Below, piece by piece: positions 2,388 to 22,044 of a stretch of DNA of 59,611 bases. The stretch's first letter is position 1, and each line of letters begins with the position of its first letter. Source of the stretch: a virus (taxonomy: Duplodnaviria > Caudoviricetes); the IMG/VR virus record IMGVR_UViG_3300049434_000096, positions 1 to 59,611 of that record. The stretch is one strand, 5' to 3'. The notes under the pieces were generated by a model, which ran no database searches, was not told the DNA's origin, and saw nothing but the letters and a program-made list of their open reading frames with translations. The translations under genes were made by a program, and so were the position numbers.

Positions 2388-2588
2388 ATGGGCTGGGATT
2401 GGCTTATCGAGGGGGATACGCGCTGGCGTGTCCAGCGCGCGCAGCGGAAGAAGCCAGGCCCGCGCATGACGCCGGAACGCGCCGACGCGCTCAGAGCAGC
2501 CGTGCGGACAGACGCGACCGATGAGGAGATCGCCGCCAGCTTCGACATAGGGCTCGACATGCTGCAGCGGTATCGGGGGCGGGGATGA
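2388..2588 (+). CDS. Small HTH-like hypothetical protein
   Basis: ATDEEIAASFDIGLDMLQRYR resembles an HTH; ATGA overlap with next gene. Confidence 0.55.
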   Translation: MGWDWLIEGDTRWRVQRAQRKKPGPRMTPERADALRAAVRTDATDEEIAASFDIGLDMLQRYRGRG

Positions 2589-3166
2589 CCCAGCTCGTCT
2601 TCCCAGTCATCGACCCATTCGCCAGCGGCTACATCGAGCGGAGCGCGCGCTTCATAGGCGGCAACCGGATCGAGCTGCGGCGCCGTTGGGCCCACAAGGG
2701 CCGGACCGCGGCGGTGATCGGCCACAATCCGAGCGACGCGGGCGAGGACCGGGACGATCCGACGTCGGGATGGTGGATCAAGTGGTTCCGAGAGAATGGC
2801 TTTGCCGAGTATCGTGCCGCCAACCTCTACCCGTTCGTCACCTCGTCGCCGGCCGAATGCCGCAAGCGGGCCGACTGGCAGAACAGCGGGCCGGATTGGT
2901 ACGCGCGCGACGCGATCTGCGACAACTTGGCCGAGCTATGCAAGATCACCGCCGCAGTCGATCAGGTCTTCGTCTGCTGGGGCGCGATCGCCTCCGACGG
3001 CGACTGGACCGAGCAGGTGATCGAGGAAATCGCCTGCAACGGCGGCAATCCCGCGCTTTGGTGCTGGGGCTTCAACGCCGACGGCAGTCCGAAGCATCCC
3101 ATGGCGCGCGGTCGGCACCGGATTCCGTCTGGGCAGAAGGCGCTGCTCTGGCGCGCGCCGCTATGA
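2585..3166 (+). CDS. DUF1643 domain protein
   Basis: IGHNPSDA..DDPT, ANLYP, VCWG, GSPKHP motifs typical of DUF1643. Confidence 0.85.
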   Translation: MTQLVFPVIDPFASGYIERSARFIGGNRIELRRRWAHKGRTAAVIGHNPSDAGEDRDDPTSGWWIKWFRENGFAEYRAANLYPFVTSSPAECRKRADWQNSGPDWYARDAICDNLAELCKITAAVDQVFVCWGAIASDGDWTEQVIEEIACNGGNPALWCWGFNADGSPKHPMARGRHRIPSGQKALLWRAPL

Positions 3167-3390: not shown

Positions 3391-3608
3391 GCGCCGATCC
3401 GCTGCCGATGCTGCCGCGCGAGTTCCTGATTATGAACTGCCGCGGCCTCGCCTTGGCGGCCTTCGGGTCCATCGAAACAATTCAGCGCCTCCTTGGATGC
3501 GACGCGTGGGAGGCGGCGGCCTTTCAGGGAGATGCAGCCGCTCGGTTCTATTGCCTGCTGGCCGACGTCGCGACTGACCGCGAGCGTCTCCAGCTGCCCG
3601 ATGAGTAG
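3387..3608 (+). CDS. Hypothetical protein
   Basis: GGAGGGG SD, ATGA overlap with upstream gene. Confidence 0.55.
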   Translation: MSADPLPMLPREFLIMNCRGLALAAFGSIETIQRLLGCDAWEAAAFQGDAAARFYCLLADVATDRERLQLPDE

Positions 3609-3868
3609 CGCACCAGCTCTGTGCCGCTGCTGGGTCTGCCTCGCGCTCGATCGCGAGTTTCCCGACGAGGGTCAGCAACTCGCGATGTTCTCCAGCAAGC
3701 GAGACGCGCGCGACAGAACGCCGGGTCTCAATTCTGTGAACCTGCGGCAGCACTTTGTGAGTAGGAACAGGAACAAGTGACATACGCAAAGTATAACTAC
3801 AGTGACAGGTGTTTAAAATGCGGTCCCTAACCGCTCCATCCAGCCACTTATTCGTTCCAAGGACCCGC

Positions 3869-3913
3869 AATAATGCATTATTTACTTGACGCTAACTTGC
3901 TCGCCGCTATTTT
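3869..3913 (+). promoter_or_regulatory. Putative sigma70 promoter (TTGACG 3886-3891, TATTTT 3908-3913) preceded by the 14-bp palindrome AATAATGCATTATT (3869-3882)
   Basis: AT-rich intergenic island upstream of the small-ORF/ribozyme operon. Confidence 0.6.
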
Positions 3914-4003
3914 CAGTGGCGCCGGCCCCGGGCGAGTTCCGCCCGAGTCGGCATCGAAAGGAATGGGCGAGCTGGGCGGCCCGAATGCCTGGCAGGGAAA
4001 GGA

Positions 4004-4270
4004 ATGGACATGACGCAGGACGAGATGAACCAGGTGCGGCGGGGCGATGGCCTCATTGTTAGCTTCGGCGCCAAGATCGGGACGCAGGTCGCCATGGCCC
4101 TCGGGCGCAATCGCACCGGCGCTTTGATGATCACGAAATACCGCAAGCGGTCCAAGAGCTGGACGAAGCCGCTGAAGGTGGCGCCGGCCGAGATCGTCGG
4201 CCGGTCGCGTGAGTATCAGCACCAGGGCCTGCCCTCGATCCCGACGGAGACCTTGTACTCCTACAAGTAG
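4004..4270 (+). CDS. Hypothetical protein; its TAG stop is part of hammerhead 1
   Basis: GAAAGGAA SD; ATG at 4004 or 4010. Confidence 0.7.
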   Translation: MDMTQDEMNQVRRGDGLIVSFGAKIGTQVAMALGRNRTGALMITKYRKRSKSWTKPLKVAPAEIVGRSREYQHQGLPSIPTETLYSYK

Positions 4271-4344
4271 GCGAAACGCGGGCGCCTCCCCCAAGGGCGC
4301 CCGCGTCGGCAGGATCTGGCCTCCCTGCCCTGATGAGCCGGCCA
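4270..4344 (+). ncRNA. Type II hammerhead ribozyme 1, predicted cleavage after GUC at 4307
   Basis: GGC-GAAA-C[stem III GCGGGCGCC/GGCGCCCGC]GUC-[stem I GGCAGG/CCUGCC]-CUGAUGA-GCC; loop I UGGCC (4317-4321) pairs with 3' GGCCA (4340-4344). Confidence 0.92.
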
Positions 4345-4353
4345 TGGAAGGGA

Positions 4354-4629
4354 ATGATGATGTCGAAGCCTATCGCCTATGTCGCCTCGCTCGATTGCGG
4401 CAACTGCACGCTCTCCGGCCACGGTGCTACCAAGCGCTCGGCCATGGCTGCCTTGGACGCGGCGATCTTCGAGCATGGCGAGGCCCGCGGTTATCTCGAC
4501 AATTGGTACGTCCCGCTGGCCGGATCGGTGACGCTGCAGCCTATCATCCTCGGCTCGGCGTGGTGCGACCGCAAGCAGCTCGAGGGCATCAGCGAGAAAG
4601 ACGAGATACGCGCCCGCGACCCCGACTAG
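4354..4629 (+). CDS. Hypothetical protein
   Basis: GGAAGGGA SD just after hammerhead 1; ATG run 4354-4362. Confidence 0.7.
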   Translation: MMMSKPIAYVASLDCGNCTLSGHGATKRSAMAALDAAIFEHGEARGYLDNWYVPLAGSVTLQPIILGSAWCDRKQLEGISEKDEIRARDPD

Positions 4630-4669
4630 CGCTGGGCCCCAAGTCTCCCCCACCACACGGAAAGGAACG

Positions 4670-4900
4670 ATGATGAGCAAGCAGTGGACTCCCGCCGACG
4701 ACGCAGCCGCAGCCCGTGAGGGGTGGGGAGTGTTCGAGGTTGGCGGAGAGGTCGATCTCGATGGTCAGTTCGAGATACAGCGTGACGACGAGGCAGGCAC
4801 GTTCGGCGACGACGAGGCAGCCTTGGCCCATGTGCGCGAGAGAGCGAAGCAAGGCAGCGGCCTGCACCGGCGAGCCCTCGTTCGCACCGTCACCGTCTAG
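4670..4900 (+). CDS. Hypothetical protein; its TAG stop is part of hammerhead 2
   Basis: GAAAGGAA SD; EGWGVF..IQRDD..F.DD.AA. Confidence 0.75.
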   Translation: MMSKQWTPADDAAAAREGWGVFEVGGEVDLDGQFEIQRDDEAGTFGDDEAALAHVRERAKQGSGLHRRALVRTVTV

Positions 4901-4971
4901 GCGAAACCGGACGAGCCCCACGGCTCCCCGGTCTGGGCGAGATGAGCGCCGCCCACTGATGAGCCTGCTCA
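4899..4971 (+). ncRNA. Type II hammerhead ribozyme 2, predicted cleavage after GUC at 4933
   Basis: AGGC-GAAA-[stem III CCGG..GAGCC/GGCUC..CCGG]UC-[stem I UGGGCG/CGCCCA]-CUGAUGA-GCCU; loop I UGAGC (4943-4947) pairs with 3' GCUCA (4967-4971). Confidence 0.92.
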
Positions 4972-4988
4972 ACGAAAGGACTGAGACT

Positions 4989-5099
4989 ATGGATACCGTG
5001 TTGGGCTCCGCGCCCGCTGCCATCGTGATCCTGATCGCCTTCGTGACGCTGATAGGCGCCGCCGCGGCCCTCATCCCCTCCGACCGCAAAGGAAGATAG
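4989..5099 (+). CDS. Small single-TM peptide (36 aa)
   Basis: GAAAGGA SD; MDTVLGSAPAAIVILIAFVTLIGAAAALIPSDRKGR. Confidence 0.65.
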   Translation: MDTVLGSAPAAIVILIAFVTLIGAAAALIPSDRKGR

Positions 5100-5103
5100 G
5101 GTC

Positions 5104-5313
5104 ATGTTGGACATTATCGCCGCCACCTTCCCGCGCCTGGTCGTGGCCCTGCGCCGTACCGGGTGCAGCCGATCGGACGCGGCCCGCCTGATCCTCGCCG
5201 CCCGCTTCGGCGAGCGCGCCACGGCATGGTGCAGCGAGGATTGCGCCCGGGCTCGCCGGATCATCGGGGCCGCGGTCCGCCAGCGCCGGGCTCGGCTGCA
5301 GGGAGGGTGTTGA
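5104..5313 (+). CDS. Hypothetical Arg-rich protein
   Basis: SD-like AGGAAG upstream; tightly packed in operon. Confidence 0.55.
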   Translation: MLDIIAATFPRLVVALRRTGCSRSDAARLILAARFGERATAWCSEDCARARRIIGAAVRQRRARLQGGC

Positions 5314-6006: not shown

Positions 6007-6482
6007 ACGCGCCAGCTCGCGAGCGCCTGTTGCGCCGTTACCTCGCTATGCGTCACCAGCGCCAAGTTGACCGCCTCGCCCTCGATGCGGCCGGCGATTA
6101 CGTCCGCCAGGCCGATGCGGAGCGGGACGCGGCGAAGGCGGACGCTCGGGCCGCGGGGCCGCCCTTCGCGATCTTCGATCATCTCCAGTACGGCCACCAG
6201 GGCACCGGCCCTGACCGGAAGCGGGCGTGGGACAATCCGGGGCTGGGCTTGGTGGAACTGCTGCATCAAGAGCGTGACGCGCGCACCGTTCGGCTCGCCA
6301 CGGCGGATCAGACGATTGCAACCATGGAGCGGGCCAACGAGCGACTCGCTGACGAGGTGATCCGACTGAGCGGCCGGGCCATCCGGGCCGAACAGGAGCT
6401 GCGGCGCCTTCGCGCCCCGCCTCCGCTGGCGATCGCCGACATGCGTGCGCCCCGCGCGATGGAAAGCGATGTGTGCCAATGA
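6003..6482 (+). CDS. Hypothetical coiled-coil protein
   Basis: GTG start overlapping upstream stop; helical heptad-like C-half. Confidence 0.6.
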   Translation: MNAPARERLLRRYLAMRHQRQVDRLALDAAGDYVRQADAERDAAKADARAAGPPFAIFDHLQYGHQGTGPDRKRAWDNPGLGLVELLHQERDARTVRLATADQTIATMERANERLADEVIRLSGRAIRAEQELRRLRAPPPLAIADMRAPRAMESDVCQ

Positions 6483-7357
6483 ACGCGCTCGGCCCGCACC
6501 CCGCCCTCCTTCGGCGGAATGACCCCGGCCCGGAACTGTGTCAGCTCGTCGGAGATTGGCGGGGCAAGATGCCCGCCGGCGGCGCGATCGTGGAGCCCAA
6601 GCTCGACGGCATCCGTGCCTTGTGGATCGATGGCGAGCTCGTCACCCGCGAAGGCACGCCCATCGCTGGCGCCGAGCATATCGACGCGCGGCTGCGCTGG
6701 CTCGAGCGCGAGGCGTGCGTGCCGCTCTTCTTCGACGGCGAATTCCTCGTCGGCGGCACGTTCGCCGAAACGCTGGCCCATTTCCAGGCCCGGGGCGGCA
6801 ACGGCGTCGCCGGCACGTTGCACCTCTTCGAGGGAATAACGATGCGGACGTGGCGCGGCGAGGATCCGTGCGAGACGCTGGAGGCGCGCCGGATCAAGCT
6901 CGACGCGATGCTGGCGGGGAAAGCGGATGCCGCGGTTCGGCCGATGCCCTGGTCGTGGGCCAACGACGCCGATGAGGTCGCGGCCAAGGCGCGCGAGTTC
7001 ATCGCCGCCGGCGGGGAGGGCGTCGTCGTCAAAGACCCGCTCGGCACGTACCAGCGGCGCCGGTCGACGGAATGGCAGCGGATCAAGAAGGCGATGACGC
7101 TGGACCTGGTCATTGTCGACGCCGTGCCGCAAGCCGATCGGGCATGGATGCTCGGCGCGCTGGTGCTCGACTATCGCGGCCGCCGGGTCCGGGTCTCGGC
7201 CGGCTTCTCCGACGCCGAGCGGATGGCGCTGTGGCGCGACAGGGCTCAGCTCGTCGGGACTGTGGCGGAGATTTCTGCTATGGAGGTGACTGAGGCTGGC
7301 TCGTTGAGGCAGGCGAGATTCGTCCGGCTGAGGCCCGACAAAGGAGGCGTCCGATGA
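6479..7357 (+). CDS. ATP-dependent DNA ligase, minimal phage type
   Basis: Motif I EPKLDGIR, III FDGEF, IV EGVVVK, V WQRIK; OB fold with SAGFSD and SLRQARF. Confidence 0.9.
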   Translation: MNALGPHPALLRRNDPGPELCQLVGDWRGKMPAGGAIVEPKLDGIRALWIDGELVTREGTPIAGAEHIDARLRWLEREACVPLFFDGEFLVGGTFAETLAHFQARGGNGVAGTLHLFEGITMRTWRGEDPCETLEARRIKLDAMLAGKADAAVRPMPWSWANDADEVAAKAREFIAAGGEGVVVKDPLGTYQRRRSTEWQRIKKAMTLDLVIVDAVPQADRAWMLGALVLDYRGRRVRVSAGFSDAERMALWRDRAQLVGTVAEISAMEVTEAGSLRQARFVRLRPDKGGVR

Positions 7358-15602: not shown

Positions 15603-17734
15603 GCCGCCACCGCCACGCTGCAGGTCGTTCCGTCGAACTCGATGCCCCCGCCGCTGGTTGGCAGCGCGGCCCATAGCTCGACGTCGTAGTCGCCGTTGGC
15701 CGGCGCCGCGGTCTGGTTGCAGCTCACCGACCCGGGCGAGGGATTGTCGACGTCGGCGACCGACGTTGAGCCGGTGACGGGTGAGCCGAAGTCGGTCGGC
15801 GAAGCGAAGTTGGTTCCGGCGACGGCGTAGCGCCACTTCAGCGCGGCCGCCTTGGTCCCGCCGCCGATCACATAATATTGGTAGCCGGGCGCGGCGTAGG
15901 CGCGGATCGTCTCGCCCGTTGCCTTGGTGACAGTGATCCGGGCCCCGATCCTGACGTAGGTCGTGCTGCTGATCTGGTCGGTCGGCCCGAACGAGCCGGA
16001 CTTGTTGCCCGTCCCGCCGCCTGTTCCGGTGCCGCCGGTCGGAGGCTCGGCGTCGGCCCGGGTGAACGGGATGCGCTGGACCGGCTGGGCCACCCCGGCG
16101 ACGGTAACGGCGAGGTCGATCCAGCCCGACACTGCGGACATGGCCGTCACCGTGATCTTGCCCTTGTCGACGCTGCCGCCGGTATTGTTGATCGTGGCGG
16201 TGACGTTGACCGGTGTCCCGATCGAATAGGTCGTGGCGGTGTCGGTCCGGATCGAGACGCCGCCCCGGGTCACGATCGGCGTCAGGACGCGCGGGAACGC
16301 GCTCGAGGGAATGACGCCGAGATAATCGGCGCTGAACGTCTGCGGCGGCGGCGCGACGACGGCGATCTGCGTGTTCGCCGTGACGTCGCCGCCCATGATC
16401 GACCAATAGGCGTTCGACGTCGCGGGCAGGGTCGGCGGGGCATGGCCGCTGGCGCGGGTGTCGAACTGCCACAGCCAATTGACGCCCTGGTCCTGCACGA
16501 AATTGCCGTCGGTGTAGATCTCGGTCGCGCTGTAGGCGCCGCGGTCGCGCAGCGGGCCGAACGTCGCGATCTCGTCGGCGCTATGGACGCGCCACGATCG
16601 GGCCCCGCCCATGGCGATGCGCCAATACGGCGTCGAGACGTCGGCCTCGACGTTCTGGGTCACCAGCGGCAGGGCATGACCTTGCGCGTCGAGCGTGATC
16701 GCGGGCGCGCCGGCCGCAACCTGCACCACGAACAGCTTGCCGAGCCAGGAGATGCCGGCCTGGGCGTTGCAGGGCCGAGCAAGGCGGCGCGCCACGTCGA
16801 GCACGCTGGCCTGCTCGGTCAGGTAGAGGTTGATGTAGCCGTGACCCGGCAGCAGCACGTAGAGAGCGTTATCCAGCGCGGCGAGGCTCGTCGTGTCGAT
16901 CAGCGCCGCATCGACTCCGGCGTGGAGCGCGATGCGGGTGACGATGTCGCCCGTCATCCTGAGCCAATTGCCGCTTTCGACGTGGCCGTCGACGTCGGCC
17001 GTGATCAGGCCGTAGGCCGGTGCGCCGAGCCGGATCAGACCTTCGGCGATGCAGGTGCCCCAGCCGCCGCCCGGGATCGTGGCGGCGAGCAAAGCGGCAT
17101 AGCTGGCATAATTGCCGGTCGAGGCGCCGAAGTCCTCGCCGCGCTCGAACAGGGCGACGACGGCCTGGATCGGGCCATAGGCCGAGACCTGGTAGACGTT
17201 GTCGACCGCATTGATGAGCACCGGCTCGACGTTGAGGCAGCGGCCGAACAGCCACGGCTTCGCCTTGCCCTTGAGGTTGGCGTCGCCCTCCGCGCCGCCT
17301 GTTCCGGCATAGGTCGCGGTCAGAGCGTCCGCCTCGAACGGCTCGGTATTGACCGCGGCGGTGAGCTTGAGCGCCGTGCCGTCCGCTTCCCAGCGCTGGA
17401 CCTTGCCGACGAACCAAGTGCCCCACGGCCACGCCGCGCCCGGTTCGCCGCGGTAGAGGGTGACCGGGGCGCCGGCCCAGAGGTAGCGGCCGACATTGGC
17501 ATCGAGGACGCCGCCGAGCTGGAGCGTGAACGCGACTTGCCCCGGCTCGACGTCCGAGCTGAAGTCGCCGTCGAACAGCTTCATCGTCTGCGTCGGCATG
17601 GCCGACATTGCCGGGAACCAGGTCTGGCCGTTCAGGCCGGTAATGTCCCGGTTCTGCGCCGAGGCGGCGCGGACATAGGGCCGGGTATCGGTCGCGGCGT
17701 CGCGCGGGGTGAGCTGGGCGAGCAGGGCCGCCAT
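15599..17734 (-). CDS. Tail tip/hub-like structural protein
   Basis: Directly follows the tape measure gene; GGAEG..LKGKAKP..FG.CLNVEP motif; beta-rich C-terminus. Confidence 0.75.
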   Translation of the reverse strand: MAALLAQLTPRDAATDTRPYVRAASAQNRDITGLNGQTWFPAMSAMPTQTMKLFDGDFSSDVEPGQVAFTLQLGGVLDANVGRYLWAGAPVTLYRGEPGAAWPWGTWFVGKVQRWEADGTALKLTAAVNTEPFEADALTATYAGTGGAEGDANLKGKAKPWLFGRCLNVEPVLINAVDNVYQVSAYGPIQAVVALFERGEDFGASTGNYASYAALLAATIPGGGWGTCIAEGLIRLGAPAYGLITADVDGHVESGNWLRMTGDIVTRIALHAGVDAALIDTTSLAALDNALYVLLPGHGYINLYLTEQASVLDVARRLARPCNAQAGISWLGKLFVVQVAAGAPAITLDAQGHALPLVTQNVEADVSTPYWRIAMGGARSWRVHSADEIATFGPLRDRGAYSATEIYTDGNFVQDQGVNWLWQFDTRASGHAPPTLPATSNAYWSIMGGDVTANTQIAVVAPPPQTFSADYLGVIPSSAFPRVLTPIVTRGGVSIRTDTATTYSIGTPVNVTATINNTGGSVDKGKITVTAMSAVSGWIDLAVTVAGVAQPVQRIPFTRADAEPPTGGTGTGGGTGNKSGSFGPTDQISSTTYVRIGARITVTKATGETIRAYAAPGYQYYVIGGGTKAAALKWRYAVAGTNFASPTDFGSPVTGSTSVADVDNPSPGSVSCNQTAAPANGDYDVELWAALPTSGGGIEFDGTTCSVAVAA

Positions 17735-20700
17735 TAGAAGTTCACGATCGCGCCGTAGTCGTGGGACGGCTCGCCGCCGGCCGACGCGCCCTGGCGGACC
17801 AGCGCGCCGACATTGTCATTGAGCGCGTCGAGCCGGCCGCCGAGCTCGGAGACCAGCACGCCGCCGAGCCGGTCGATCGCGGTGACGGTCTGGGTGTCGC
17901 CCGCCGTCACGGTGTCGGCGCCGAGCGGGCCGGGCCGGGCCGTGACGATCGAGATCAAATTCTCCTGCCCGGCCAGCGCGTCGCGGGTCAGGCGCGTCAC
18001 TTCGTCCAGCGCCTGGAAATACGGGTTGGTCGAGCCCGAAATCTGCCGCTGCAATTCAAGGACGAGCCGCGCCGCCTCGGCGAAGGCGTCGTAATCGACG
18101 GTCCGGTCCCCGGCCGCGACGCGCGTCGCGAGCGGGTCATATTTGGCATGGGCGGCGGCGAGGCGCTCCCTAAGCGAGATGGCGTCGTTGTTGACGGTGA
18201 GGTCGTCGAGCAGGGACTTCAGCGCCGACGTCATCCGCTGGCCCGCCTGCGTGATCGCATCGGCTCGTTCCAGCGCGTAGAGCTGCTCGAGCTGGGCATA
18301 TTCCTCGGCGCTGGCCCCGGCATCGGCAAAGACGCGCTTCAGGTTGGCGAATTCCTTGTCGAGGGTGTCGAGCGCGGCACCGACCGGATCGAGCCGGGCC
18401 TTGAGCCGCTCGAACACGCCCTCGAACTTGAGGGCTTTCTCTATTCCGCTATCGATGTCCTTGGCGGCGCGGAGCAGGGTCTGCGTGCCTTGGCGCAGGC
18501 CCTCGATTACGCCATCCTTGATCAGGTCCAGCACGGCGGCGCGGACCGCGGCCTCGGCATCCTCGCCGAAGTCGATCGCGCCCTTCTTGGTCTTGGTAAT
18601 GCCGCGCCCGGTCGGGTCGACCCGGTACTTGCCGTCGCGCATCCCGATGGAAACGGCGCCGGCCGCCGCGTTGACCGAGCCGCCGAACAGCTCGGCGATA
18701 CGCGCCACGGTGGAAAGCACGGAGTCGGCCGCTGTCGTAGTTTGGCCCCGCACGGTGCGCGACCCGGTCGAGCCGGTCACGGCAAGGTTGCCGCCCGCTC
18801 CGGCACCGATCGTCGAGGAGGCGCGCGGCGGGGAGAAGAACAGGGAGCCGAGCGCCGTGCCGGCGACGCCGAATGCGGAGAGCGGATTCTGCCGCAGCCC
18901 CAGCAGGCCTTCGAGCTTGGTCTGGATCGGCTTGAAAAAGGCGTTGTACATCGAGGCGCCTTCCAGCGCGCCGCTGATCAGGTTGCCGATCGTCGCGCCG
19001 AACCGCTCGCCGAACACTTGGGTCGCAAGCTCGGTCGCCATGATCCTGGCGAACTGGCGCGGGCTCATCCGCTCGGTCGGATCGGTGCCGCGCTGGGCCG
19101 TGACGACGATGTCGCCGTTGTCGTTCGCCGCAGCGGCTCGGGCGGCGCTGTCCATCGAGGCGCGGCTCAGCACGTTCGCCAGCGCCTCCCCGGCCCGGGG
19201 AGCGGCATCGCTGAGACTGGCGATGACGGCGTCGAGGTCGTGCAGCCCGGTGCCGAGACGCTCGATCGCCGCCGTGGTCTGAGCCGCCTGCTCAGGGAAC
19301 CGGAACGTCGCCGGGTCGACATCGCGGCCGGCGACCCTGACCCGGTAGTGGAGGTGCGGCCCGGTCGCATGGCCGGTCTCCCCGACGTTTCCGACCACAT
19401 CGCCCGCCGTGACGGTCTGCCCGGCGCGCAGCGAGGATTGGCGGATCAGGTGCGAATAAGACGAAACGATGCCGCCGCCATGGTCGATGACAACGTTGTA
19501 GCCGCTGCGCGCGTCGTAGCCGACCGTGACGACCCGGCCCGAAGCGCGCGACGTGACGGCGGTGCCGAGTGCGGCCGCGATGTCGAGGCCGGCCGAGTTG
19601 CGCGCGAGATGCTGGGCGAAGGTGTTGGTGATGCGGCCCTGAACCGGCAGGCCGGATAGCGAGCGCGATGCGGCGGCGCCGACACCGCTCGCCGCCGCCG
19701 ACGGGACGGCGGACAGCCGGTCCGCCGCGACGTCCACGGCCGAGCCGAACCGTCCGAGCCGGTCGATGACCTGGTCGATCGTGTTGATCTCGGTCCGGTG
19801 CGCCGTGCCGAGATTGGCCATTTCGGCGCGCACCGTTCCGATCGAGCCAGCCATCTCCTCATTGGCCTGCCGGACTCTGTCCCGCCCGGTGATCTGATCC
19901 TCGAGCTGGCGGAACGTGTTGCCGAACAGGCGCTCGACCAAGGCCTCGGCACTAAGCTGTCGGTAGGCTTGCGCGATGCCGGAGATGCTCGACAGGGCGT
20001 GCGCCGGCGCTGCGGCGATGTCGACGAGGCTGGAGCGGACCTGCCCGGCGAAGTTGAGATAGAGCTGCTGTCGGGCGCGAATGATTTCGAGCTGCCGGGC
20101 CTGCTCGCTCAGCGCGACGACGCTGGCGAGGATGACCTGCTTGCGCTCCTCGCCGAGCGGGCCGAGCTGCTCCTCGAGCCGGTGGATGATGCCGAGCGCA
20201 TCGGCCTCCTCCTGCCGGCCCTGCGCGACGAGCTGGCCGACTGCATAGGAGCGGACCTGATCGGCGAGGAACTCGCGATAGGGCCGGACCAGCGCGTCGG
20301 TCACGGTCTGGCCAGCCGCGGCGATGCGGGGCGCAAGGTCGGGGAATTGCTGCGCCGCCGCTTCCAGCTGCTCCAGCGCCAGCGTTGCGCGCTGAACCAG
20401 CTTCGGCGCCTCGCCGAAACCTTCCGTGATCTGCCGGATCAGCCCGTCGCGGATCGAGGCGCGCGCCGTCTCGGCGCCGCGTTGCATCTCGTCGAAGCGG
20501 GGCAGCTTGCGGCGCTGCGCCTCGGCCAGGACCTGGTCGAGCTCGCGCACGGCCTGAACCGCGCGGTCGACGAGCCGGGGCTGGTCGTTCCACGCCTCGT
20601 TGATGCGCGTGATCTGCTCGATCGAGGAGGAGGCCTGCTCGGGGCGGTGGTCTTCGCGCGGGCGGCGCTCATGACCGGTGCGGCGGAGCGAGGGATCGAG

Positions 20701-22044
20701 ACGCCCTTCGTCGAGCGAGCGCGTGGTCAGCTCCGCAATTCGCTGGTTCGCCTGTCCGCGGGCTTGGTCGATGACCGCCTGCCGGAAGTCGTGGGCGGAG
20801 AGGCCGGCCGAGCTACGGGCAAAATCGGGCCGCGCGCTCGCGGCGAGCGCGGCGTTGCGCGCCGCCTCCAGCGCCGTTTCCGCGCTCCGGCGCGCTGCGT
20901 CTCCGCTGGCCGCGTCGAGCCGCTGCTGCGCATTCTCGATGGCCTGCAACAGCTGCCGCTGCTCGCCGGCTGCTCGTTCCAGAGATTCGAGACGCTGGCC
21001 CGGCGTGCTGCCGCGCAACGGAGAGAGGTAGGCGCCGATATTTTCGCCTATCGAGGTCGGCTCGGTGCCCTCGCGGAACAGCCGTCGGGCGTTCTCCTCC
21101 TGCTCCATTCCCTGCAATTGGAGGTTGAGGGCCGTCACCCGGGCATTGAGCCGCATCAACTCGATATGCTCGCGCAACGCGCCGGCCTGATCGCGCAGCT
21201 TACCGGTCGTCATGTCGAAAATCTCGCCGAGCGCGCTTTGCGCCTCGCCAAGCCCGTCGGTCGCGTGCTGAGCGTCCTCGGCCGCGCTAGAGGTGCGGTT
21301 GAGGCCTTGGATTAGGTAGCCGAGCGCGGCGACTCCGAGGAAGATCGCGGTGCCCCACGGCCCGGCGATGAACCGGCCGAATGCCGCCGCGCGCCCGGTC
21401 ATCTGCGACATCGCGAATCCAAGTTGCGAGCCTTGCTGAACAAGTATAGTTAAAGCGGATGTTCCCATCTGCGCTTGGATAGCCACATCTTGAAGCTGTT
21501 GCCCAACTTGGACCATAGCAAATCTCGACGCTCTCGCACTATTTGAGTAGGCATCTTGTGAATTGACTAGTTGCCTGTTAGCTCCAATTACTGCGGTGGT
21601 GCGCGACGCGGTCTGGTTCAGCTCGGCCTGGACCCGCTCCATCGAGGTGGCGAATTGATTTTCGGCGGCCGCGTTATCCGCCGCCTGGATCGCCGCGGCC
21701 CGATAGGCCTGAATGAGGACGCGAGTCTGCTCCGACATGTCGCCCGTGGCGCGCGCCGCACGTTCGGCGGCCGTCGCGACCTCACGCAGCGCGATGGCCT
21801 GAGCGTCGGCCGCTTGTGCCGCGGCCCGATATTGTCCGACGCCGAGGTCAAGGGAGCCGCCGGCGTTGCGGGGCATGGTGAGGGCGCGCTGGGCGATGCC
21901 CTGGATTTCGGAGAAGCTGGTCTCAAACTGGCGCCGGGTGCGATCGGCCGAGGCTGCGGCCTGCTGCTCGAACTGCGCAAAGCCGCTCCCCGGCCGGTAC
22001 TCATCGGTGATGAATGCCGGGAAAATCGAGCTGCGGGAGGCCAC
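17734..22044 (-). CDS. Tape measure protein with internal M23 peptidase domain
   Basis: 1436 aa, Ala-rich helical; lambda-type VGQQLQD..VQQGSQL block; AGLDIAA..SSYSHL..TGPHLHY. Confidence 0.9.
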   Translation of the reverse strand: MASRSSIFPAFITDEYRPGSGFAQFEQQAAASADRTRRQFETSFSEIQGIAQRALTMPRNAGGSLDLGVGQYRAAAQAADAQAIALREVATAAERAARATGDMSEQTRVLIQAYRAAAIQAADNAAAENQFATSMERVQAELNQTASRTTAVIGANRQLVNSQDAYSNSARASRFAMVQVGQQLQDVAIQAQMGTSALTILVQQGSQLGFAMSQMTGRAAAFGRFIAGPWGTAIFLGVAALGYLIQGLNRTSSAAEDAQHATDGLGEAQSALGEIFDMTTGKLRDQAGALREHIELMRLNARVTALNLQLQGMEQEENARRLFREGTEPTSIGENIGAYLSPLRGSTPGQRLESLERAAGEQRQLLQAIENAQQRLDAASGDAARRSAETALEAARNAALAASARPDFARSSAGLSAHDFRQAVIDQARGQANQRIAELTTRSLDEGRLDPSLRRTGHERRPREDHRPEQASSSIEQITRINEAWNDQPRLVDRAVQAVRELDQVLAEAQRRKLPRFDEMQRGAETARASIRDGLIRQITEGFGEAPKLVQRATLALEQLEAAAQQFPDLAPRIAAAGQTVTDALVRPYREFLADQVRSYAVGQLVAQGRQEEADALGIIHRLEEQLGPLGEERKQVILASVVALSEQARQLEIIRARQQLYLNFAGQVRSSLVDIAAAPAHALSSISGIAQAYRQLSAEALVERLFGNTFRQLEDQITGRDRVRQANEEMAGSIGTVRAEMANLGTAHRTEINTIDQVIDRLGRFGSAVDVAADRLSAVPSAAASGVGAAASRSLSGLPVQGRITNTFAQHLARNSAGLDIAAALGTAVTSRASGRVVTVGYDARSGYNVVIDHGGGIVSSYSHLIRQSSLRAGQTVTAGDVVGNVGETGHATGPHLHYRVRVAGRDVDPATFRFPEQAAQTTAAIERLGTGLHDLDAVIASLSDAAPRAGEALANVLSRASMDSAARAAAANDNGDIVVTAQRGTDPTERMSPRQFARIMATELATQVFGERFGATIGNLISGALEGASMYNAFFKPIQTKLEGLLGLRQNPLSAFGVAGTALGSLFFSPPRASSTIGAGAGGNLAVTGSTGSRTVRGQTTTAADSVLSTVARIAELFGGSVNAAAGAVSIGMRDGKYRVDPTGRGITKTKKGAIDFGEDAEAAVRAAVLDLIKDGVIEGLRQGTQTLLRAAKDIDSGIEKALKFEGVFERLKARLDPVGAALDTLDKEFANLKRVFADAGASAEEYAQLEQLYALERADAITQAGQRMTSALKSLLDDLTVNNDAISLRERLAAAHAKYDPLATRVAAGDRTVDYDAFAEAARLVLELQRQISGSTNPYFQALDEVTRLTRDALAGQENLISIVTARPGPLGADTVTAGDTQTVTAIDRLGGVLVSELGGRLDALNDNVGALVRQGASAGGEPSHDYGAIVNF

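Follow-up and report, generated by a model that had tools for sequence, protein, structure and literature searches.

Two type II hammerhead ribozymes, HH1 and HH2, lie 626 nt apart on the coding strand of a provirus and flank a block of two small genes. Judging from their sequence and predicted structure, both are probably functional and belong to the sense-strand transcript of a prophage operon of the early or accessory type, which they would cut into separate messages. Their identification as complete type II hammerheads, each with a pseudoknot between loop I and the 3' tail, is supported by their anatomy, by full-length matches to the Rfam Hammerhead_II model (RF02276) and by a structural descriptor, in agreement with the type II identity given in a preliminary description of the locus. 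The stretch of DNA analysed, referred to here as the window, is the whole IMG/VR provirus record of a tailed phage (59,611 bases), with a completeness estimate of 96%.

Anatomy of the two hammerheads

[quoted passage not shown] The hammerhead core, as set out in the main text of Perreault et al. (2011; PMC3088659), comprises C3 U4 G5 A6 N7 G8 A9, G12 A13 A14, an A15.1-U16.1 pair and H17. HH1 and HH2 carry every one of these elements, as CUGAUGA, GAA, an A-U pair closing stem III, and C17, so that direct reading of the sequence confirms the perfect core previously claimed for both.

In HH1, the open stem II consists of three base pairs (4270-4272, GGC, with 4337-4339, GCC), and its outermost base is the G of the TAG stop codon (4268-4270) of the upstream gene, gene 1. 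The core elements are GAA at 4273-4275, C17 at 4307 and CUGAUGA at 4330-4336. Stem III has 12 bp (4276-4287 with 4295-4306), and stem I has 6 bp (4308-4313 with 4324-4329) closed by a 10-nt loop I (4314-4323). Within that loop, UGGCC (4317-4321, +) is complementary to GGCCA (4340-4344, +), which stands immediately after stem II, and the duplex has a computed energy of -7.5 kcal/mol. The pairs adjoining the core (1.1-2.1, 10.1-11.1 and 15.1-16.1) are G-C, G-C and A-U, with no mispair. Given where GUC stands with respect to stems III and I, self-cleavage is predicted after C17, between 4307 and 4308 (+).

Stem II of HH2 likewise has 3 bp (4900-4902 with 4963-4965), with the G of the gene 3 TAG stop codon (4898-4900) as its outermost base, and stem III (4906-4932) has 5 + 5 bp with a small bulge. 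C17 stands at 4933, stem I has 6 bp (4934-4939 with 4950-4955), loop I has 10 nt (4940-4949) and CUGAUGA occupies 4956-4962; the pairs adjoining the core are U-A, G-C and A-U, again with no mispair. The loop I strand UGAGC (4943-4947, +) is complementary to GCUCA in the 3' tail (4967-4971, +; duplex -5.4 kcal/mol), and cleavage after C17 is predicted from the sequence between 4933 and 4934 (+). The 6-bp stem I, the 10-nt loop I and both predicted cleavage positions (4307/4308 and 4933/4934) are the same as those in the preliminary description.

According to the main text of Perreault et al. (PMC3088659), in the majority of type II members loop I forms a pseudoknot of at least 4 pairs with the nucleotides that directly follow stem II. 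Both pseudoknots described here have 5 bp and, as had been noted, arise from the same place in the loop, positions 4-8; their sequences differ (UGGCC/GGCCA versus UGAGC/GCUCA) and their complementarity is kept. This is compensatory change of the kind that was earlier read as selection on structure, and that reading stands: over aligned columns HH1 and HH2 are only 51% identical, and every helix is retained. A perfect core, together with helices preserved by compensatory change in both copies, argues that the catalytic structure is under selection. The nearest hammerheads of other contigs share 59-65% identity with HH1 and HH2, which are thus closer to these than to each other and therefore do not represent a recent duplication.

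The minimum-energy fold of HH2 is the hammerhead three-way junction. That of HH1 keeps stem III and replaces stem I, with 4307-4310 (C17 and the first three bases of stem I) pairing with 4337-4340 (GCCG, in stem II and the tail). This competing conformer, a rival to stem I and to the first pseudoknot pair, would be inactive. The hammerhead fold of HH1 lies 2.1 kcal/mol above its minimum, a difference in which the -7.5 kcal/mol of the pseudoknot is not yet counted. Folding z-scores alone do not set the two elements apart from shuffles (z about -1.9; -1.88 for HH1 and -1.85 for HH2), and 8 and 11 of 200 shuffles fold equally well.

Model matches and chance expectation

Against RF02276, HH1 scores 35.7 bits (E 0.0014) and HH2 scores 29.7 bits (E 0.052), each over model positions 1-66 of 66, and no other match at E <= 1 arises when the whole window is compared with all 4227 Rfam families. 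The Rfam hammerhead search, which the preliminary description had proposed as a check, returned full-length Hammerhead_II matches, both of them under the gathering score of 37 bits. At that threshold, which is an operational cut-off rather than a structural feature, the window contains no match. The alignment indicates that the scores fall below 37 because stem III is long and because the distal stem I pairs of the model correspond to loop in HH1 and HH2. For six hammerheads built in the same way, from five other viral loci, the scores range over 30.8-43.6 bits, with only two of the six at 37 or above; the shortfall is therefore typical of the build.

The core pattern occurs twice in the window against 0.15 expected occurrences, and none of 100 shuffles reaches two, whereas the heptamer CTGATGA alone shows no enrichment in the window (5 found versus 5.9 expected). 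When the core is combined with a stem II of at least 2 bp, a stem III of at least 4 bp and a stem I of at least 5 bp, the resulting structural descriptor finds exactly HH1 and HH2 on the two strands of the window and gives no hits in 300 dinucleotide shuffles.

A hammerhead family in phage DNA

At least 119 stretches of viral contigs match a pattern written for this form of stem II. Among the matches listed, a loop I/tail helix of 5 bp or more is present in 64 of the 160 unique hammerheads that have a 12-nt tail, compared with 14% when the tails are shuffled. We also built a phage covariance model seeded with 16 hammerheads, HH1 and HH2 included, which gave 241 matches in 1.04 Mb from 100 sources and scores HH1, itself one of the seeds, at 67.9 bits. 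In the best 150 of these 241 matches (136 distinct), 98.6% of cells pair in an alignment that is fitted to the model and favors pairing, the corresponding figures being 70.8% for shuffles and 25-43% once partners are slid; in the same best 150 of 241, 10 of the 13 pairs vary on both sides. The number of descriptor copies per viral locus of 1.1-15 kb ranges, among the matches listed, from one (64 of 103 loci) to 12 (2 loci), and loci L050, L070, L051 and L017 are examples of many hammerheads within 15 kb.

Type II hammerheads with this pseudoknot are described in the main text of Perreault et al. (2011; PMC3088659) as clustering in prophages, where they flank single genes or short blocks that are not conserved. 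Cleavage was shown there in vitro for three clusters and in Escherichia coli for the Agrobacterium tumefaciens cluster, and processing into single-gene or operon-length mRNAs was proposed. Later reviews, in their treatment of the hundreds of phage hammerheads, still call the biological role open (PMC6765202, PMC6155905).

Compared with the prophage clusters of RF02276, such as the triple hammerhead around ardA in A. tumefaciens (main text of PMC3088659), the elements described here agree in core, type II topology and pseudoknot and in having a stem II that is short and open. They also share the sense-strand intergenic placement, the presence of several copies around one or two small genes and the proposed cutting of a polycistronic RNA. 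The window differs from the clusters in that publication (PMC3088659, main text) by its Sphingomonadales host, a different set of flanked genes without ardA, the presence of only two copies and Rfam scores just below the cut-off, and its cleavage is predicted. Hammerhead-rich phage operons on other viral contigs have the same layout, in which a stop codon is followed within 0-5 nt by the ribozyme and then by its tail, a ribosome-binding site and a start codon. Whereas such loci contain up to 12 descriptor hits among the matches listed, the window is a modest two-copy version, with its stop codons at the overlapping end of the range.

The provirus and its small-gene operon

The same provirus DNA is present within a Sphingomonadales metagenome-assembled genome (MAG) scaffold, which places the host, a soil bacterium, in that order. 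The only sequencing run listed as containing this DNA is a DNA run, which may come from the source sample. The genes of the provirus include a gpA-type large terminase, a tape-measure protein and, at the right end, an integrase; the tape-measure protein (17734-22044, -; 1436 aa) carries an M23 peptidase domain. Structural genes lie on the minus strand. Around the ribozyme block, the + strand carries a module of the accessory or replication type (116-1972, 2585-3166 and 6473-7357) that encodes a C5 DNA methylase (618 aa), a DUF1643 protein and a small ATP-dependent DNA ligase.

Upstream of the ribozymes, a gap of about 400 nt (3609-4003) holds no convincing gene and is a possible control region for the early operon; promoter-like sites are found there in both directions (3886-3913, +; 3817-3790, -). 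The + strand site (TTGACG, 16 nt, TATTTT) was picked up by a consensus scan with 9 of 12 matches, which is not evidence of function, and is a candidate for the start of the ribozyme-bearing transcription unit. G+C drops to 0.46 at 3750-3899, compared with about 0.65-0.7 in the surroundings, marking an A+T-rich gap roughly 400 nt upstream of the ribozymes. We rejected the idea of a repressor gene on the minus strand within 3430-3870, given its third-position G+C of 0.54, its lack of a Pfam match and its implausible Arg-rich translation. On the + strand, no terminator-like sites were found before 6706.

HH1 and HH2 lie in gaps between small + strand ORFs whose third-position G+C is of the coding type (0.75-0.91), compared with 0.54-0.78 for ORFs that overlap them on the minus strand or in other + frames. 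Gene 1 (4004-4270, start at 4004 or 4010; third-position G+C 0.91) encodes a small protein and ends immediately at HH1. Between the ribozymes are gene 2 (4354-4629, start at 4354, 4357 or 4360; third-position G+C 0.84), which encodes a small Cys-containing protein and has a ribosome-binding site at 4346-4353, and gene 3 (4670-4900), which encodes a 76-aa protein. Gene 4 (4989-5099; third-position G+C 0.84), preceded by a ribosome-binding site at 4975-4980, encodes a 36-aa hydrophobic peptide. All four genes end in TAG (4268-4270, 4627-4629, 4898-4900 and 5097-5099), although contact with a ribozyme is confined to two of these stops; among 32 likely genes picked out crudely in the window, the stops are TGA in 19, TAA in 7 and TAG in 6.

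Searches of genes 1-4 in Pfam, PHROG, PADLOC and NCBIfam gave no match except PHROG 38215 (unknown function; E 5.8e-12) for gene 3, and in the ESM Atlas the flanked proteins reached scores of 0.83 or less with a low-confidence model, gene 2 being without a useful match. A protein search with gene 3 returned four hits including itself, that is, three distant homologues. For this 76-aa protein, no relatives were confirmed in viral contigs, and genome contigs yielded only the same provirus inside the Sphingomonadales MAG. No match to 3900-5300 was found by blastn in 50,697 phage records. Among the hammerhead matches listed, only one of 119 viral loci (L044) contains a homologue of any of genes 1-4: a 53%-identical gene 3 homologue (L044:1932-2111, -), with a hammerhead (L044:310-383, -) about 1.5 kb downstream on the same strand and not adjacent to it. 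A search for Hammerhead_II in 151 genomes of the order of the host matched only the host genome, a result that says little given that 31 candidates were scored per genome, and we found no close relative of the operon in which to test conservation of the two ribozyme slots.

Placement between stop codons and ribosome-binding sites

The preliminary description had both ribozymes beginning within the TAG stop of the upstream gene and ending shortly before the next SD sequence. Both observations hold, since the G of each TAG forms the outermost base of stem II and the ribosome-binding sites of genes 2 and 4 follow the two 3' tails. To place this arrangement, we surveyed 159 unique hammerheads with enough upstream sequence, 141 of which follow, within 60 nt, the end of an upstream open frame of 40 codons or more (among the matches listed). 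Within the same listed matches, the stop ends -1 to +5 nt from stem II in 107 of the 141; these 107 include 14 with a one-base TAG overlap, the two in the window among them, and 27 in which stop and stem are flush. Setting HH1 and HH2 aside, the one-base overlap of stop and stem II is also found in 12 of 139 surveyed cases among the matches listed. At the downstream edge, a ribosome-binding site and start lie within 60 nt in 132 of the 159 hammerheads (among the matches listed).

The survey was repeated without fixing stem II and with the stop permitted anywhere up to the end of the ribozyme, which gave 186 cases among the matches listed. The distribution again peaks at the edge of the ribozyme, with 23 stops flush and 17 overlapping by one base, and 94 of the 186 listed cases fall between 0-6 nt before the ribozyme and one base inside it. 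We suspect that another 44 of the 186, whose stops lie deeper inside the ribozyme, are wrong-frame picks in GC-rich DNA. These stop-distance distributions suggest that the arrangement of HH1 and HH2 is a habit of the family, seen at its tight end. Flush stop placement across the family was not found in the papers searched, and the term 'stop codon' is absent from the main texts of PMC3088659 and PMC6765202, which is not proof of novelty.

Proposed processing of the transcript

Self-processing of an operon into mRNA units, as proposed in the preliminary description, is the standard hypothesis for such clusters and, by analogy with them, is plausible here. Each module of 75-78 nt would fold while the + strand transcript is being made, and self-cutting after C4307 and after C4933 would yield three RNAs. 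The first would be the gene 1 message, which would retain its stop codon and have a 2',3'-cyclic phosphate after the 12-bp stem III hairpin at its 3' end. The second (4308-4933, +; 626 nt) would carry genes 2 and 3, with a 5'-OH and a stem I hairpin at one end and a stem III hairpin and 2',3'-cyclic phosphate at the other, and the third would be the downstream message. Both the second and the third RNA would begin with a 5'-OH and a stem I hairpin, 16-26 nt before a ribosome-binding site. These end groups follow from the known hammerhead mechanism. In the upstream RNA, the distance from the stop codon to the new 3' end is 37 nt for HH1 and 33 nt for HH2, and computed hairpin energies are -25.3 (HH1) and -15.1 (HH2) kcal/mol for stem III and about -9 kcal/mol for stem I (-9.2 on the 626-nt RNA).

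As a consequence, neighboring genes of one transcript would probably gain separate lifetimes and yields without a host RNase. We infer such separate stabilities of the RNA pieces by analogy with T7 RNase III processing and with ribozyme insulators. In phage T7 early RNA, RNase III sites lie between genes, the long transcript is cut and 3' hairpins protect the upstream messages. The intergenic cutting is similar; in T7, however, a protein enzyme of the host does the cutting, while the RNA here would act on itself and leave ends of a different chemistry, and the locus is not a member of that system. The RiboJ insulator was engineered from a type III satellite-RNA hammerhead. Like the arrangement described here, it places a self-cleaving hammerhead before a ribosome-binding site and gives a defined 5'-OH end with a hairpin, a likeness that is an analogy only. 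It would likewise be expected, rather than observed, that the operon is transcribed from the promoter-like site, that its RNA is cleaved in the cell and that stability or translation is affected.

Alternative explanations

A different role for the stop-codon contact, raised in the preliminary description and in our view unlikely, is that translation gates the cut. A terminating ribosome on the stop of gene 1 or gene 3 would cover the stem II strand, GAA and the foot of stem III, so that cleavage could occur only without upstream translation or after release. The footprint of a terminating ribosome extends roughly 10 nt beyond the stop, and in both copies stem II has the G of the TAG as its outermost base. 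The placement surveys are in keeping with the idea, both in the 107 of 141 cases with a stop -1 to +5 nt from stem II (14 of them with a one-base overlap) and in the peak of flush (23) or overlapping (17) stops among 186, all among the matches listed. If gating were true, mRNA cutting would be coupled to translation, and a stop within stem II would let terminating ribosomes time the cut. However, phage genomes are expected to be tightly packed in any case, the ribozymes are as closely followed downstream as they are preceded upstream (132 of 159 among the matches listed) and hammerheads can cleave during transcription, ahead of any ribosome. The contact with the stop codon is real, but it is one end of a family-wide tight packing, and genome compaction would explain it equally well.

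It is also quite improbable, in our view, that HH1 and HH2 are mobile passengers, that is, that hammerheads spread among phage operons as small cassettes of a stop-proximal ribozyme and a leader and bring little benefit here. The greater similarity of both copies to hammerheads of unrelated contigs (59-65%) than to each other (51%) would fit such spread, as would the range of copy number from one to 12 per locus among the matches listed. The flanked genes, moreover, are not conserved, either here or in the clusters covered by the main text of PMC3088659. Against this stand the perfect core and the full set of helices kept by compensatory change in both copies, which point to selection on the catalytic structure.

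Very improbable is a scenario in which the cut ends are rejoined. Because HH1 and HH2 share stem II (GGC/GCC) and the core, the ends of the 626-nt RNA can rebuild a complete hybrid hammerhead; ligation by the ribozyme or by an RtcB-type ligase would then make a circular two-gene RNA, or the outer pieces would be joined and the block spliced out. In silico, 5'/3' hybrids of HH1 and HH2 do fold like the native elements (-31.1 and -40.3 kcal/mol), but such interchangeability of modules follows from family conservation and is not specific evidence. The possibility was raised by Perreault et al., whose main text states, with data not shown, that they detected no spliced or circular products from their clusters (PMC3088659). 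If ligation did occur, the product could be a circular, exonuclease-resistant two-gene mRNA translated from internal ribosome-binding sites.

Finally, although both copies score under the Rfam gathering threshold, HH1 has a competing fold and some inactive candidates are listed in the main text of Perreault et al. (PMC3088659), it is highly unlikely that HH1 and HH2 are decayed or chance look-alikes whose GC-rich hairpins merely stabilize RNA or act as pause sites, given that no core position deviates, the pairs adjoining the core are intact, the descriptor has no hits in 300 shuffles and same-build hammerheads in five other viral loci (30.8-43.6 bits, two of six at 37 or above) make the shortfall usual for variants with a long stem III and an unpaired loop I.

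Implications

Self-cleavage of one operon transcript into separate messages is thus the reading that we favor. The arrangement has been known in prophages since it was published in 2011, and the locus leaves existing knowledge unchanged. It provides a clean, small example, in which two diverged ribozymes enclose a single two-gene block and a likely promoter lies 400 nt upstream. We envision it as a compact system in which to test whether neighboring phage genes acquire separate lifetimes through self-cleavage.
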